Notes: generated by a model not told the origin, from the sequence alone. Positions 1 to 5,738 are shown, counted from the first letter of the stretch. The stretch: 64,000 nt of DNA from a phage (GCA_015370545.1 GCA_015370545.1_3932.1); one strand, 5' to 3'. A program made the numbers and translations.

Positions 1-79
1 GTGCATACGGAGTTATGGCTGAGGTTGCACAAATTGTCAAAGGCAGAAAAGATAAATCACAACAAGAAGGAAATTCTTA

Positions 80-382
80 ATGGCAGTTCTAAATTGGTCT
101 ACAAACGAAGTAGATACTGATGGTAATCAGTTAAAAGTTTTACCACCACCGGAAGTTCAAGAGACAGGTCTTTTAAAGGGTGAGCCTATGGGTAGACAGT
201 GGTTCAACTATATTATCAACTACCTGCTGAATAAAGTAAATGGCACTGTTGGTGAAGTTCGTTCATATGCAACTGAGCAACCAGATTTAGTGGCTAATGG
301 CTGGAACCTCATTAAGTCTGAGACAGGGACTGCATCAACAAGTACAAGAAACCTTTACACATATGAATATGTAGGAGCTTAA
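80..382 (+). CDS. hypothetical protein directly upstream of tail-fibre genes (possibly tail-associated)
   Basis: 100-aa ORF from track; stop 3 nt before the next gene; no recognisable motif. Confidence 0.4.
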
Positions 383-384
383 TA

Positions 385-1560
385 ATGGCAGTAGGTGAAA
401 TTCAAATTAGTGCCTTGCCACAAGCGGCCTTACCAATTGATTTGAGTGATATCTTCCACCTTAAGCAAGGTGTTGAGGATAAAAGATGTACGCTTGAGCA
501 GTTGTTAGCACCTCACGCATCTTTGAGGAATAACCCTCATGGTGTAACTAAATCACAAGTAGGTCTTGATAATGTTATTAACTCTCTTCAATTAGTTGCA
601 GCTAATAACTTGTCAGATGTTGTAAGTGTTGCTGAGGCAAGAGCAAATCTACAAATTATGTCGTCAGAGGAAGTGAATAACTTAATTCAGCAACATATTG
701 ACGACAAAAGTAACCCACACAATACAACGAAAGCACAGGTCGGTTTAAGTAATGTTCAGAACTGGACAACATCCAATCTGTACAATGAAGATGCTGATAA
801 ATATGCTACCGCGAAAGCAGTTAATAATTTATACAAAGCTATCCAAGCGTCATATCCAGTAGGGACTATTCACCTGTCTGTTAACTCTGCTAACCCATCC
901 ACTTACTTACTTTGTGGAGGTACTTGGGAGTTAGTTTCTAAAGGTAGAGCACTAGTTGGTTATGATACAGATTCTAGACCTGTTGGTTCAACGTTTGGTT
1001 CTCAGACTGTAGCATTAACAAATAATAATTTACCAGCACATACACACTCTATCTATTTAACAGGTGGTGGTCACACACACTCTGCAAGCGTATCTATCTC
1101 TAGTTTTGATTATGGTTCAAAAAGTACATCAACTTTTGATTACGGTACAAAAACGACTAATAGTGCTGGTGCTCATACTCACACGTTTAGTGGCACAACA
1201 AGTAATGCTGGTAACCACAACCATAGAGTACCTATGAGGGGTAATGATAGAGGTGGTACAAATGCTATTACTGCATCTGCTGATGCTGGTGTTGGTAATG
1301 CTATGTATACTGATTTAGCTGGTGCTCACACCCATAGCTTCTCAGGCACAACTGCATCATCTGGTGCTCATAGTCATACTGTTGCAATTGGTGCTCATAG
1401 TCACACTGTTAATATTGGTTCACACAGCCATACAGGTACTGTTACTGTTTCTAGCTCCGAGCATACACACTCAGGAACATCTGGTTCTGTTGGTGGTGGT
1501 CAAGCTTTCAGTGTTGAGCAGCCATCTTTTGTAGTGTATGTGTGGCAGAGAACAGCTTAA
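385..1560 (+). CDS. tail fibre protein with His-x-His repeat receptor-binding tip
   Basis: 391-aa ORF; C-terminal third is full of HTHS/HSHT/GAHSHTV repeats like the metal-binding tips of T4-type fibres; C-terminal module shared with the next ORF (ends ...AFSV...W.RTA). Confidence 0.7.
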   Translation: MAVGEIQISALPQAALPIDLSDIFHLKQGVEDKRCTLEQLLAPHASLRNNPHGVTKSQVGLDNVINSLQLVAANNLSDVVSVAEARANLQIMSSEEVNNLIQQHIDDKSNPHNTTKAQVGLSNVQNWTTSNLYNEDADKYATAKAVNNLYKAIQASYPVGTIHLSVNSANPSTYLLCGGTWELVSKGRALVGYDTDSRPVGSTFGSQTVALTNNNLPAHTHSIYLTGGGHTHSASVSISSFDYGSKSTSTFDYGTKTTNSAGAHTHTFSGTTSNAGNHNHRVPMRGNDRGGTNAITASADAGVGNAMYTDLAGAHTHSFSGTTASSGAHSHTVAIGAHSHTVNIGSHSHTGTVTVSSSEHTHSGTSGSVGGGQAFSVEQPSFVVYVWQRTA

Positions 1561-1570
1561 GTTCTTTACA

Positions 1571-1590
1571 GGGGCTTTATAGCCCCTTTT
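1571..1590 (+). terminator. rho-independent terminator
   Basis: GGGGCT-TTAT-AGCCCC hairpin followed by TTTT, just after the stop at 1560. Confidence 0.6.
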
Positions 1591-1606
1591 AAGAGGAAAA
1601 TTCATA

Positions 1607-4156
1607 ATGGCAGATTACAAATTGAGTCAATTAAACTCAATCGACACAATTCGTTCAGAAGACCTATTGCACATCAGAGTTAAGAAAAGACCTGAAATGT
1701 TGGGTGATGAAGACCGTAGAATGACCTATCAAGACTTCTTGGCTTCCTTCAAACTAGAAAGGTTTGTTCAGATTGCTGGAAGCACTATGACTGGGGATTT
1801 AGGTATTGTCAAGTTACTTTACGGTGGAAAGTCTGTATTTGACCCTACAGGCTCTTCTGAGATTACTATTGGGGATATTTTAAAGACTTTTAAAATTAAC
1901 GCAAATGGTCTTAAACTAACTATTGCAGATGCTTCAAGGTCAGCAACTGTTTATCATACTCTGAATAAGCCAAGTCCTAATGAGCTTGGTATGAGAACTA
2001 ATGAAGAGAATGATACAAGATACGCAAGACTTGCTATCACAAACACATTCTCTGGAACTCAAAATATTCAAGGTGATGCTAACTTACTTCGCCTTAGAAA
2101 CCAAAATGCAAATAATGCACAATATATCGAAGGTGTAAACCTAGATGGTTCGGCTAGATGGTGGGTTGGTATTGGTAGTAATGGCTCTGACGAAGTAAAG
2201 CTGTACAATAACAAATACAACTCAGCCTTGACTGTTGCAAGTAATGTCTCTGTTAATAAGTCTTTAGCAATCACTGGTCAAGTTCAACCTTCAGATTTCT
2301 CTAACTTAGATGCTAGATACTTCACTCAGACAGTTGCTAATCAGAGATTTGCACAGTTAGCTGGTAATAACACCTTTACAGGTGCTAACACATTTAGGAC
2401 TATGAGTGTTATCTCAAATGCTGCTGCTATCACACTGCAATGTGCATCAGCAAACGAATCCCTGTATCTACTTGCAAAAGATTATGAAGGTGGAAACTTA
2501 TGGTATCTTGGTAAAGGTAGTTCAGGTGCTGGTGTAACTATCTACAACTATACCACTAACACCTCTTTAGTCTTAGATGCTGCTGGAGTATCAGCAAATA
2601 AAAATGTCAGAATCACTGGTCAAGTTCAACCTTCAGATTGGGCTAACATTGACTCTAGATATATTCCGGCAGCAACATTAAGTACAATTGCAAGAACTAA
2701 TGCACAAAATGCTTTTAATGGTGTACAGAAAGTTGTTACGGATAATGAAGCCCTAATTGTGAAAAACTCTACTCAGAACAGACCATTGTATATCCGTGGT
2801 GTGGACACTGCTAATGTGTCAAGGTGGTGGGTAGGTGTTGGTGGGGCAGATACTAATGATGTAACCCTAAATAACAGTTTTTCTGGCACTCAGTTAGTTC
2901 TCGGGAATACAACATCATACATTAACAAAACATTGACTATTGCTGGACAAGTTCAACCTTCAGATTTCTCTAACTTAGATGCTAGATACTTTACGCAAAG
3001 TGCTAGTGATAGTAGATACCTAAGAATCAGAAGCACTAGCTTCAATGTGGGAAACACTGATAAGTGGGCTAAAATTGCCACTGTTGTGATGCCACAATCA
3101 GCATCCACTGCTGTTATTGAGGTATTTGGTGGGTCAGGTTTTAATATTAATACACCAAACCAAGCAGGTAAATGTGAAATTGTTCTGCGAACTTCAAATA
3201 ACAATCCAAAGGGCTTAAATGTTGTTGCTTGGAGAACATCAGAGAACACCATTGTCAGGGATATTGGTTATGTGAATACTTCTGGAGACACCTATGATAT
3301 TTACTATCTTGCTGGTACGTATCAAAACAGCACAACGACAAGGGTTCAGTCTTCTAGTAATGCAAGTGTACAGTTGTTTGAAGTCCCACAGACATTTGAT
3401 GATGCTCCACAAGGTATTGTGAAGGGTACAATTGCAAAATACTACACAAGTTTGCAAAAACCAACCCCTTCAGATATTGGTGCATACACTAAAGCAGAAA
3501 CTGACCAGAAGATTGCAGAAGCAATTAGTGACTCTACAGACCTGAATAAAATCTATCCAGTAGGTATTGTGACGTGGTTTAACAGTAATGTTAACCCTAA
3601 TACAGCACTTCCTGGTCTAACTTGGACGTACCTGAATAATGGTGTTGGTAGAACTATTAGAATTGCAGCAGCAAACGGTTCAGATGTTGCTACAACTGGT
3701 GGTTCAGACTCTGTAACGTTGTCTGTTGGTAACTTGCCTTCACACACGCACAGCTTCTCTGCTACTACTTCATCATTTGACTATGGTACTAAGACTTCTA
3801 GCACAACTGGTAACCACAACCACAACAGAGGTACTATGGAGATTACTGGTTCATTTGGTTACTTCAGAAGTGACGCTAGTAGCTTCTACACAGCAAGTGG
3901 TGCATTCTACCTCGGTAGTCAGGCAGGTTCTAAAGGGTATACTGGTAACAACTTTACTAATGGTATCCCTGTCAACTTCAACGCATCAAGAAACTGGTCT
4001 GGTGTAACGAATACAACAGGTAACCACAGCCACACTGTTGGTATTGGTGCTCACAGCCACACAGTTAGCGGTAACACAGGTGGTACTGGTTCTGGTTCAG
4101 CATTTAGTGTTACTAACCAGTTCTATAAGTTAATGGCTTGGGTAAGAACTGCTTAA
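1607..4156 (+). CDS. long tail fibre protein
   Basis: 849-aa ORF; threefold internal repeat ITGQVQPSD(F/W)(S/A)N(L/I)D(A/S)RY; C-terminal HxH repeats (HTHSFS, GNHNHN, GNHSHTVGIGAHSHTV) and ending shared with ORF 385..1560. Confidence 0.75.
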   Translation: MADYKLSQLNSIDTIRSEDLLHIRVKKRPEMLGDEDRRMTYQDFLASFKLERFVQIAGSTMTGDLGIVKLLYGGKSVFDPTGSSEITIGDILKTFKINANGLKLTIADASRSATVYHTLNKPSPNELGMRTNEENDTRYARLAITNTFSGTQNIQGDANLLRLRNQNANNAQYIEGVNLDGSARWWVGIGSNGSDEVKLYNNKYNSALTVASNVSVNKSLAITGQVQPSDFSNLDARYFTQTVANQRFAQLAGNNTFTGANTFRTMSVISNAAAITLQCASANESLYLLAKDYEGGNLWYLGKGSSGAGVTIYNYTTNTSLVLDAAGVSANKNVRITGQVQPSDWANIDSRYIPAATLSTIARTNAQNAFNGVQKVVTDNEALIVKNSTQNRPLYIRGVDTANVSRWWVGVGGADTNDVTLNNSFSGTQLVLGNTTSYINKTLTIAGQVQPSDFSNLDARYFTQSASDSRYLRIRSTSFNVGNTDKWAKIATVVMPQSASTAVIEVFGGSGFNINTPNQAGKCEIVLRTSNNNPKGLNVVAWRTSENTIVRDIGYVNTSGDTYDIYYLAGTYQNSTTTRVQSSSNASVQLFEVPQTFDDAPQGIVKGTIAKYYTSLQKPTPSDIGAYTKAETDQKIAEAISDSTDLNKIYPVGIVTWFNSNVNPNTALPGLTWTYLNNGVGRTIRIAAANGSDVATTGGSDSVTLSVGNLPSHTHSFSATTSSFDYGTKTSSTTGNHNHNRGTMEITGSFGYFRSDASSFYTASGAFYLGSQAGSKGYTGNNFTNGIPVNFNASRNWSGVTNTTGNHSHTVGIGAHSHTVSGNTGGTGSGSAFSVTNQFYKLMAWVRTA

Positions 4157-4235
4157 TCCCTTGTTGACTGATTGTTAAGATGGTGTTAATATTCTTTATG
4201 GGTATTCTCACCATCTTGGCTGATGAGGTGATTAA

Positions 4236-4433
4236 ATGCCTACAATCCTAGCAATTCTTCTAAAAAATCTAGGTAGCTTCTTCTGGAAACTCATTTTATC
4301 CCTTCTAAGTGAATACATGATTGAGAAGGTGTTCTTTAAGCTTGCAAGATATCTTGCGAGTAAGACAGACACACCTATTGATGATGAGTTCGTAGATAAC
4401 TTAGAAAAAGCTTTTAAGGGGGAGAATAAATGA
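4236..4433 (+). CDS. hypothetical small protein
   Basis: 65-aa ORF, hydrophobic/amphipathic N-terminus, ATGA overlap with next ORF. Confidence 0.4.
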   Translation: MPTILAILLKNLGSFFWKLILSLLSEYMIEKVFFKLARYLASKTDTPIDDEFVDNLEKAFKGENK

Positions 4434-4801
4434 AGTGGCTAGAGGATGCTTTTAAAAATAATATTGGTGCAATTGTAGTTGGTATTTTTAGTGTTATTGG
4501 GATGTATACCACGATGCAAGTTTCAAGTGGTAAGCAAGAAGTGTCTGTCACAACGAAGTTACAGCAGCTAGATAATTACACCAAAAGTAACTATTCAGCT
4601 ATTCGTGATTTACAGTCTGACATGAGACTCATTCAGTTAGGAATGGAGAACCAGAAAGTTCAGTTAGAGAATGTTAAGGGTGAGAATGCAAAACTTACCA
4701 AAACTCTTGATAAGTTCTCTGACAGTGTAAATAATCTGGCTCAATCAGTATCAGCCCTCCAAGCTATTACTGAGAAGAACACAAAAAGTACTGAAAAATA
4801 A
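4430..4801 (+). CDS. membrane-anchored coiled-coil protein
   Basis: 123 aa; N-terminal hydrophobic segment IGAIVVGIFSVIGMY followed by heptad-like Q/E/K-rich region. Confidence 0.45.
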   Translation: MKWLEDAFKNNIGAIVVGIFSVIGMYTTMQVSSGKQEVSVTTKLQQLDNYTKSNYSAIRDLQSDMRLIQLGMENQKVQLENVKGENAKLTKTLDKFSDSVNNLAQSVSALQAITEKNTKSTEK

Positions 4802-4808
4802 AGTTTAA

Positions 4809-4834
4809 GGCTCCCGTAAAAAGGAGCCTTTTTT
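4809..4834 (+). terminator. rho-independent terminator at convergent junction
   Basis: GGCTCC-CGTAAAAA-GGAGCC followed by TTTTTT. Confidence 0.65.
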
Positions 4835-4838
4835 GTTT

Positions 4839-5738
4839 CTACTTACCTACTGACAAAGGTGCTTCAATCTTTCCTGCATGTTGGTAGTTGTAAATGCCAC
4901 CAATAAAATCACTTGCAGTAAGGTGTTTTAGGTCACTTAGTGTGTTAAGTGGTACACCAATCTCAAAAGTAGGTGCATGGAACTCTTCATTGTTCATCAG
5001 TTCATAAACCTGTTTCATATGGTTCTGATAAATCTGAGTATCTCCAAAGACACCTATCAAGTACCGTGGAGTGTATCCAGTCATCTTACAAAGAACTTCC
5101 AGAATAAAACCGTAAGATGCAATATTAAACGGAAGTCCTAAAAAGGTGTCTACTGAACGTTGATACCACTGTAAGTCAACTTCACCCTCATTAGTGATAT
5201 AAATCTGAAACAGAACATGACAAGGTGCTAAAGCCATCGAGTTGGATGCAATATCTGCTGCATTCCAAGCATTAACAAGCATGTAGCGGTCTGTAATATC
5301 ACCCTTCATCTTCGTTACTAAGGTCTCTAACTGGTCTACAACACAACCATTATGACCTTCAAAGTTTCTCCACTGAACCCCGTAGATTCTCCCACCTGCA
5401 TCCTCTAACCAATCTTGTTCAGAGGAATAATTAGAGCTTAACCAACGTTTAAAATCATCTGACCAGATTGTCCAGCGTTCTCCGTCATTTTCATCCCAAG
5501 TACGGTAACGAAGTTCACCAAGCTTATTCTCACCATTCAGGAACCATAAAGCTTCCCCAATAACTTGCCGTGTAAACACCTGTTTAGATGTCAAGAGTGG
5601 GAAACCAGTTCTCATATCAAAACGAAACTTAGGTGGGGCAAATGCAGAGATAACATCTCCAGTTCGTGTAGTACGCAGTTCACCAACGGATAAAACATGG
5701 CTTAGGATATTTTTGTAACTTGTATCTGCTTGTGACAT
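4839..5738 (-). CDS. td: thymidylate synthase
   Basis: 299 aa; active-site context LAPCHVLFQIY, overall ThyA-like length; uninterrupted ORF. Confidence 0.9.
   Translation of the reverse strand: MSQADTSYKNILSHVLSVGELRTTRTGDVISAFAPPKFRFDMRTGFPLLTSKQVFTRQVIGEALWFLNGENKLGELRYRTWDENDGERWTIWSDDFKRWLSSNYSSEQDWLEDAGGRIYGVQWRNFEGHNGCVVDQLETLVTKMKGDITDRYMLVNAWNAADIASNSMALAPCHVLFQIYITNEGEVDLQWYQRSVDTFLGLPFNIASYGFILEVLCKMTGYTPRYLIGVFGDTQIYQNHMKQVYELMNNEEFHAPTFEIGVPLNTLSDLKHLTASDFIGGIYNYQHAGKIEAPLSVGK

Follow-up and report, generated by a model that had tools for sequence, protein, structure and literature searches.

The tail fibre locus

The window analysed here is a stretch of phage DNA of 64,000 nucleotides (nt) (GCA_015370545.1), and our subject is the pair of adjacent genes near its start that encode a short tail fibre (STF) and a long tail fibre (LTF). 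A reading made from the sequence alone had placed two tail fibre genes between positions 385 and 4,156. Both open reading frames (ORFs) were recovered there, and each product falls into a PHROG tail fibre family (lengths are given in amino acids, aa):

385..1560, + strand: STF gene, 391 aa; phrog_2097 tail fibre, E=1e-138
1607..4156, + strand: LTF gene, 849 aa; phrog_4277, E=0, full length

The first 9 kb of the window matched 264 phage records and are 94-96% identical at the DNA level to Felixounavirus phages of Escherichia coli O157 (KEP3, the O157 typing phages, and wV8). The locus carries the short and long tail fibre genes of a Felixounavirus, i.e., a Felix O1/wV8-like E. coli myophage. 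The STF is 99.5% identical to gp82 of wV8 and has Bas63 gp26 and Sf14 gp52 as further orthologues. The LTF is 98% identical to its orthologue in KEP3 and ~93% identical to wV8 gp83, corresponds to Bas63 gp27 and Sf14 gp53, and finds full-length matches in 190 phage records. In the relatives, wV8 gp83 was found in the virion by mass spectrometry (PMC2674420, 2009), Sf14 gp52 and gp53 were detected in virions by the same method (PMC11821841), and the fibres of Bas63 were shown by cryo-electron microscopy (cryo-EM) to be attached to the baseplate (PMC12609058). For our comparisons, 13 STFs and 13 LTFs were taken from GenBank, and the addition of IMG/VR loci brought the LTFs to 28 distinct full-length sequences.

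C-terminal regions and their relation to the T4 gp37 tip

The STF and the C-terminal part of the LTF could be divided into the same succession of domains:

385..804, + strand: STF aa 1-140, conserved N-terminal part (baseplate binding and shaft); identity of 83-99% in 12 relatives
805..1038, + strand: STF aa 141-218, collar domain; Pfam PF21939 Gp10_C, E=3.7e-18, 67.3 bits (cut-off 27)
1039..1224, + strand: STF aa 219-280, ascending needle strand; His-x-His at aa 219, 230, 264, 278
1225..1326, + strand: STF aa 281-314, head, predicted receptor-contacting tip and hypervariable cassette; position matches the T4 gp37 head
1327..1557, + strand: STF descending needle strand and C-terminal AFSV…WQRTA; His-x-His at aa 315, 329, 338, 347, 360
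3467..3742, + strand: LTF aa 621-712, collar domain; Pfam PF21939 Gp10_C, 27.2 bits, E=8e-6
3743..3823, + strand: LTF aa 713-739, ascending needle strand; His-x-His at aa 713, 737
3824..4024, + strand: LTF aa 740-806, head, large aromatic-rich cassette and predicted receptor-contacting tip; 10 allele types, minimum identity 6%
4025..4153, + strand: LTF descending needle strand and conserved C-terminal AFSVTNQFYKLMAWVRTA; His-x-His at aa 807, 816; a single allele type in 28 fibres

The runs of His-x-His and the similar protein ends noted in the sequence-only reading are real features of both fibres. The STF carries nine His-x-His motifs and the LTF four, far beyond the expectation from 5000 composition-preserving shuffles (mean 1.4 and maximum 7 for the STF; mean 0.1 and maximum 3 for the LTF), and the two C-termini, QAFSVEQPSFVVYVWQRTA in the STF and SAFSVTNQFYKLMAWVRTA in the LTF, have AFSV…W.RTA in common. 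Residues 145-362 of the STF matched the tip of T4 gp37 (PDB 2XGF) with E=1.8e-26 (BLASTP, 49% identity over 121 aa, 99 bits), and residues 707-828 of the LTF matched the same structure with E=5.8e-7 (BLASTP, 41% over 103 aa). When profiles of the two tips, built from 32 distinct STF and 28 distinct LTF sequences, were compared with hhalign, they aligned end to end, terminal motif included, with a probability of 99.9% and E=1.9e-35. By these alignments, the two C-terminal regions are homologues of the T4 gp37 tip and of one another.

A three-way alignment with T4 gp37 residues 785-1026 extended this relation to the individual motifs. All seven His-x-His motifs of T4 coincide with motifs of the STF, His 883, 915, and 929 on its ascending strand and His 966, 980, 989, and 998 on its descending strand, and four of the seven coincide with motifs of the LTF. 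The two that the STF has in excess of T4, at aa 230 and 360, lie at the collar-proximal end of each strand, and the STF C-terminus aligns with …IAFNYIVRLA of T4. In both fibres the motifs form two clusters (4+5 in the STF, 2+2 in the LTF) that flank a head insert. The STF head has 15-36% identity in most relatives as against 58-77% in its flanks, the rest of the STF being conserved. Ahead of the needle, the STF collar aligns with the C-terminal domain of T4 gp10 (2FKK, 5HX2) and with the collar of 2XGF, and the LTF collar aligns with that of the STF; the LTF segment typed as collar-to-needle-up (aa 621-735) has 59-100% identity among relatives. The N-terminal part of the STF contains two NPHxxTKxQVGL motifs, at aa 50 and 110, and its baseplate-binding role is taken from the Bas63 paper (PMC12609058).

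In T4 gp37, di-histidine motifs coordinate iron along the needle (2XGF) and the chain doubles back at the head (PMC12609058). A collar-needle-head unit was described in both Felixounavirus fibres of Bas63, where the return of the C-terminus to the collar was stated from fitted models (PMC12609058). By homology, the His-x-His runs of the present fibres probably form a six-stranded needle shaft; the hypervariable stretch that separates the two His clusters (STF aa 281-314, LTF aa 740-806) would be the head, and the terminal AFSV…W.RTA would fold back to the collar and not lie at the distal tip. The end-to-end alignment of both tips with T4 gp37 785-1026, terminal motif included, is consistent with a chain that doubles back. 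The proposal of a shared metal-coordinating, receptor-binding tip thus needs to be divided: the homology of the two tips to 2XGF and to each other upholds it, whereas the His-x-His stretches belong by homology to the shaft, and the contact surface is assigned to the head insert.

Shaft modules of the long fibre

The LTF reaches its collar through a long shaft, which was divided as follows (the junctions of modules 1, 2, and 3 are copies 1, 2, and 3 of the repeated motif):

1607..2026, + strand: LTF aa 1-140, N-terminal baseplate-binding part and first shaft domain ending KPSPNELG; 74-96% identical in relatives, 2 allele types
2027..2335, + strand: LTF aa 141-243, module 1, variable core 141-220, junction ITGQVQPSDFSNLDARYFTQ; PF20744, E=4.3e-33
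2336..2677, + strand: LTF aa 244-357, module 2, variable core 261-335, junction ITGQVQPSDWANIDSRYIPA; PF20744, E=3.1e-17
2678..3004, + strand: LTF aa 358-466, module 3, variable core 361-440, junction IAGQVQPSDFSNLDARYFTQ; PF20744, E=6.6e-30
3005..3466, + strand: LTF aa 467-620, fourth variable domain ending KPTPSDIGAY; phrog_3299, phrog_21552, phrog_22609

A module of ~110 aa is present three times in the LTF, with pairwise local-alignment z-scores of 19-30 against shuffles. The Pfam family PF20744 (gp37_trimer) matched the whole LTF with 257.7 bits in three stretches, and modules 1, 2, and 3 taken singly with 113.6, 62.8, and 103.4 bits (cut-off 21.7). The sequence-only reading had seen this triplication as a short motif repeated at about aa 222, 340, and 448. 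Three copies of a 20-residue motif do exist, starting at aa 222, 336, and 445 (with GQVQPSD at 224, 338, and 447), but they are not identical, as copies 1 and 3 are almost the same and copy 2 has diverged; the motif is the conserved end of the whole ~110-aa module. At the DNA level it appears as a three-copy direct repeat (2253-2328, 2595-2670, and 2922-2997), with an exact run of 44 nt between copies 1 and 3.

Every one of the 28 distinct full-length LTFs has three modules, which indicates that the triplication is ancient and the number fixed. Variation of module copy number by unequal crossing-over at the 44-nt direct repeat was considered and rejected, since none was found among these fibres, in agreement with the Bas63 paper (PMC12609058). 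As a separate observation, the 44-nt run shared by LTF junctions 1 and 3 contains no synonymous difference at all. Similar runs between these junctions occur in KEP3 (44 nt) and BPS15S6 (43 nt), and the other relatives have just 9-32 nt; the exact run suggests intragenic gene conversion, and neither deletion nor duplication variants turned up.

Five junction-like motifs were found along the LTF, at aa 122, 227, 341, 450, and 619, which fits the five shaft domains reported for the LTF of Bas63 (PMC12609058). In our alignments, similarity of aa 30-140 and aa 467-640 to the three modules was undetectable (z<=3.2), and these two regions share with each other just a short junction-like motif (z=6.4). 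As only three repeats can be recognised in the sequence, the 'five repeat domains' of the Bas63 paper are not all sequence repeats. Many T-even phages have, inside their gp37 distal fibre, a region to which the fourth variable domain is 31-46% identical. Other Felixounaviruses have an unrelated PF12604-type domain in its place, and this alternative was also seen in the Citrobacter phage KMM2; the fourth domain is a cassette shared across phage families.

Mosaicism among relatives

We then counted allele types, defined by >=80% identity among the 28 LTFs, in consecutive segments of the protein:

LTF segment: allele types
N-terminus, aa 1-140: 2
Module-1 core, aa 141-220: 9
Junction 1, aa 221-260: 3
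Module-2 core, aa 261-335: 15
Junction 2, aa 336-360: 3
Module-3 core, aa 361-440: 16
Junction 3, aa 441-470: 9
Fourth domain, aa 471-620: 12
Collar, aa 621-735: 3
Head, aa 740-806: 10
C-terminus, aa 807-849: 1

Five of the six conserved segments have 1-3 allele types, junction 3 with its 9 being the exception, and the five variable segments occur in 23 combinations in the 28 fibres. DNA identity falls abruptly at the junctions, from 95-100% to ~50-55%. The LTF of wV8 offers the simplest case: it is 95-100% identical to that of the window save for aa ~258-340, where identity drops to ~55% in DNA and 42% in protein, so that a swapped module-2 core is the sole difference between the two. Other block patterns of DNA identity were seen in D4, XTG1, BPS15S6, and REP11. 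This distribution indicates cassette exchange, with module cores, fourth domain, and heads as the units swapped and with the conserved junctions and the His-box strands as the sites of recombination.

The E. coli O157:H7 phages wV8, KEP3, D4, and HY02 and the phage of the window have a common LTF head type (A) and an almost identical STF, and they differ in their alleles of modules 1, 2, and 3. In this small sample, head type, not module type, tracks the O157 host. The shared heads and differing modules argue against modules as primary host-range determinants, and the sharing of heads fits the T4 paradigm in which the head sets specificity. The view of these modular fibres as hotspots of recombination for host-range switching is hence supported as far as the strong mosaicism goes, and variation among relatives, which it had implied, is found in the module cores (9-16 LTF allele types) and in the heads (10). 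What does not vary is the number of modules, and it is the head type that goes with O157.

Two further observations concern the fibres of relatives. In REP11 and VpaE1, LTF head and needle are almost identical to those of T4 gp37, which implies, on sequence grounds, a direct exchange of receptor-binding heads between Ounavirinae and Tevenvirinae. In three relatives (KMM2 and two others), the LTF frame is interrupted (596+189 aa, 453 aa, and 541 aa), and these are either sequencing errors or truly broken long fibres. Because some LTF matches are limited to aa 1-472 and a 189-aa ORF comes after the 596-aa fibre gene of KMM2, a different tip plus a chaperone gene was suspected in relatives, and the idea was rejected. 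The 189-aa ORF of KMM2 matches phrog_4277 positions 610-780 (E=6.5e-77) and encodes the C-terminal part of this very fibre, hence a split gene, and the matches limited to aa 1-472 are fibres with the divergent PF12604-type fourth domain.

Gene order and flanking features

The fibre genes lie in a conserved neighbourhood, of which two features were mapped close to the genes themselves:

80..382, + strand: 100-aa platform protein of the LTF; full-length phmmer match to chain S of PDB 9NDY, E=9.9e-59
1570..1587, + strand: intergenic hairpin AGGGGCT-TTAT-AGCCCCT, followed by TTT and then the LTF ribosome-binding site; read from the sequence

Chain S of 9NDY is the 'LTF platform protein (gp025)' of phage Bas63 and is near-identical to the product of ORF 80..382, which is the baseplate attachment point for the long fibre. 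Its equivalents stand at the same position in all annotated relatives examined and are labelled 'hypothetical protein' in every one. The gene order is identical in 12 annotated relatives, running from baseplate wedge genes through the platform gene (the 100-aa ORF), the STF (~390 aa), the LTF (~780-850 aa), and two small ORFs to the convergent td/frd genes (thymidylate synthase, dihydrofolate reductase). The window starts downstream of the wedge genes, which were observed only in the relatives. The hairpin lies past the STF stop codon and ahead of the LTF ribosome-binding site, and its equivalent in wV8 is annotated as a Rho-independent terminator. It was found by eye and, owing to its short T-run, was missed by a consensus terminator scan of positions 1-5000; it could attenuate read-through into the LTF gene.

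Beyond the LTF stop codon, a promoter-like TTGACT-17-TAATAT (4164-4192) lies just upstream of a 65-aa membrane ORF (4236..4433), within and beside a 9-bp inverted repeat composed of AAGATGGTG (4177-4185) and CACCATCTT (4209-4217). This ORF and the next on the + strand (4430-4801, 123 aa) both have hydrophobic N-termini, and the second also has a coiled coil. Several relatives have the 123-aa ORF annotated as 'holin'. Its homologue in Sf14, gp55, is among the proteins that mass spectrometry detected in virions (PMC11821841, Table 1); a holin would hardly be expected there, and the product might have a fibre-associated role. At the far end of the window (62557-63972, + strand), eight tRNA genes (Pro, Glu, Met, Asn, Tyr, Asp, Lys, and Met) are clustered. 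Felix O1-like genomes carry 22-23 tRNAs, and a tRNA cluster is typical of them.

Weighing the interpretation

With the ORFs, homologies, motif mapping, and cassette pattern set out above, we consider it very probable that the locus encodes a Felixounavirus side-fibre pair with T4 gp37-type tips and cassette mosaicism. No result contradicts it, though some points call for caution. With four of the seven T4 His motifs and a head ~2 times the T4 length, the LTF tip may deviate from the T4 geometry, and the Gp10_C match that marks its collar is barely at the Pfam threshold (27.2 against 27 bits). Published densities of Felixounavirus fibres are too weak for side-chain modelling (PMC12609058), and a PDB search with STF and LTF returned no solved structure of either Felixounavirus fibre. 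T4 gp37 needs the chaperones gp38 and gp57A, and in the ORFs flanking the fibre genes, the only ones screened, no gp38- or gp57A-like chaperone family was matched (Pfam, PHROG). For Sf14, its genome was likewise reported to have no homologues of Mu-type chaperones (PMC11821841).

The His-x-His runs could themselves be the receptor-binding surface, a metal-dependent adhesin at the extreme C-terminal end; they do cluster in the last ~170 residues of the STF and ~140 of the LTF, and the metal-binding chemistry of histidine is compatible with such a role. We give this almost no credence, because conservation of the tip across phages of different hosts is highest in the His-x-His motifs and the terminal AFSV…RTA (the C-terminus is of one allele type in 28), the hypervariable part is the segment between the His clusters, and the motifs align one-to-one with T4 gp37. 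The adjacency and common orientation of the STF and LTF genes, which have the same collar-needle-head unit and terminal motif, might instead be read as a recent tandem duplication in this phage lineage. Such an origin is very improbable, given that the STF needle and head are nearer to T4 gp37 (49% over 121 aa, 99 bits) than to the neighbouring LTF tip (32% over 221 aa, 70 bits) and that both genes occur with the same architecture in Felixounavirus and Mooglevirus; any duplication would therefore be old and overwritten by later horizontal exchange with T-even-like fibres.

Two other explanations address the shaft. The variability of its modules could be ordinary divergence under relaxed constraint, with no exchange of cassettes and with junctions that are merely structurally constrained; beta-helical shaft domains tolerate substitutions, the junction motifs are probably folding or registration elements, and the number of modules never varies. 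Ordinary divergence of this kind is highly unlikely to account for flanking DNA that is 95-100% identical beside single modules at ~50-55% with sharp boundaries, for a wV8 fibre that differs from that of the window in module 2 alone, or for allele types that reassort freely (23 combinations in 28 fibres), and 14-25% amino acid identity inside genes with >90% identical ends is beyond drift. Cassette exchange does not by itself say what the cores are for, and the PF20744 modules, together with the fourth domain, may be additional, independently exchangeable binding sites for host glycans, which would give each LTF several specificity determinants. The extreme diversity of the cores (9-16 types, down to 14% identity) beside near-identical flanks suggests diversifying or balancing selection, the authors of the Bas63 study termed the shaft variability unexpected (PMC12609058), and module 2 is weakly similar to a C-terminal fragment of T7 gp17 (4A0T, E=0.011). 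We nevertheless think it unlikely, though conceivable. O157:H7 phages combine the same LTF head and STF with different alleles of modules 1, 2, and 3, so the modules are not needed to define that host; Pfam scans matched no lectin-type or carbohydrate-binding family to them, and the equivalent rod domains of T4 gp34 are regarded as structural (PMC12609058). That module cores and fourth domain do more than space the fibre and act as ligand-binding surfaces in a wider sense (as secondary receptors for glycans, or as decoys that counter host or immune factors) is a similarly small chance; if true, it would explain why ancient divergent alleles are retained and reshuffled between otherwise near-identical phages.

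Proposed architecture

Returning to the side-fibre pair with T4 gp37-type tips, we propose an architecture in which the trimeric state, the binding of metal, the course of the chain, and the contact of the head with a receptor are drawn from T4 and from the published cryo-EM of Bas63 and Sf14. Each fibre would be a homotrimer whose conserved N-terminus docks on the baseplate, the long fibre sitting on the platform protein. The C-terminal ~230-250 residues would form a collar of the T4 gp10/gp12 type, an out-and-back needle, and a small head at the turn. His-x-His motifs on the outgoing and returning strands would direct six inward histidines per site, from the three chains, onto one metal ion (Fe2+ in T4), stapling the needle; nine such sites are predicted in the short fibre and four in the long one, and by analogy each Fe2+ would be bound octahedrally by its six histidines. 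The head between the His clusters would contact the host surface (lipopolysaccharide or an outer-membrane protein), and the chain end would return to the collar. In the LTF shaft there would be five domains with a short conserved PSD-type junction at the end of each; the PF20744 modules make up three of the five. Across the genus, conserved junctions and His-box strands flank divergent cores that are swapped by homologous recombination into a combinatorial mosaic, and an exchange of heads would swap host specificity.

Comparison with known systems and significance

The closest structural counterpart is the T4 gp37 tip (2XGF; Bartual et al. 2010), with which the fibres share the collar-needle-head arrangement, the His-x-His motifs (7/7 in the STF, four in the LTF), and a hydrophobic C-terminal motif ending in R-x-A. 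They differ from it in the two extra His-x-His motifs of the STF and, in the LTF, in a motif count of only four and a head of 67 aa, about double the T4 length. The flanking ORFs screened include no gp38-type chaperone gene downstream of the fibres, and the rest of both fibres is unrelated to gp37, save for LTF aa ~470-637, which resemble an internal domain of some T-even gp37 proteins. The closest relatives are the Felixounavirus and Mooglevirus fibres (Bas63 gp26/gp27, Sf14 gp52/gp53, wV8 gp82/gp83, and VpaE1 gp74/gp75), which are orthologues in the same gene order, have the same published architecture (a domain at the N-terminus that binds the baseplate, five LTF shaft domains, and a T4 gp37-like tip in both fibres), and differ in the combination of alleles only. 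The di-histidine motifs reported for Bas63 number seven in the STF and six plus HHxH in the LTF, compared with nine and four in the window. Repeated trimeric shaft domains with short junction elements between them are also known from the T4 gp34 rod (PDB 5NXH) and the T7 gp17 fragment (4A0T), and the authors of the Bas63 paper treat the LTF repeats as the equivalent of the former (PMC12609058). T4 gp34 differs in having no significant sequence similarity to the LTF, and the relation of the folds rests on published models.

The pattern of exchange has its own parallel in the T-even phages. Distal fibre and adhesin genes of that group are reportedly mosaic through recombination at the 'His boxes' of gp37 and the glycine-rich motifs of gp38, as Tétart et al. 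are said to have described; our literature search for 'His box' recombination found no paper with that phrase. In both cases, short conserved motifs flank hypervariable segments and serve as crossover points for the swapping of adhesin specificity, which in the window would be the His-box strands and the module junctions. The difference is that shuffling in the LTF extends to three shaft modules far from the head.

Every element of the main finding is already published, and the sequence-only reading is essentially right after correction of its topology. That the long fibres of wV8 and Felix O1 are mosaic in an unusual way was reported in 2009 (PMC2674420), and the T4 gp37 homology of both fibres was noted for VpaE1 in 2015 (PMC4690856). 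The Sf14 study of 2025 described two fibres that measure 430 and 630 Å and lie folded along the tail (PMC11821841). For Bas63, the same year brought the di-histidine collar-needle-head tips, the five shaft repeat domains, the variable tips, and an unexpectedly variable shaft without change of copy number (PMC12609058). The detail added here is the one-to-one mapping of the His-x-His motifs, the allele counts by segment, and the single-module difference from wV8.

Salmonella typing and the biocontrol of E. coli O157 both make use of Felix O1/wV8-like phages. Their host range is set in the two fibres, and the locus is a practical handle more than a discovery. The segment map marks where chimeric fibres could be spliced with the fold intact. 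Polymorphism is as high in the shaft modules, which lie far from the head, as it is in the head, and the comparison of the O157 phages does not favour a ligand-binding role for these modules.

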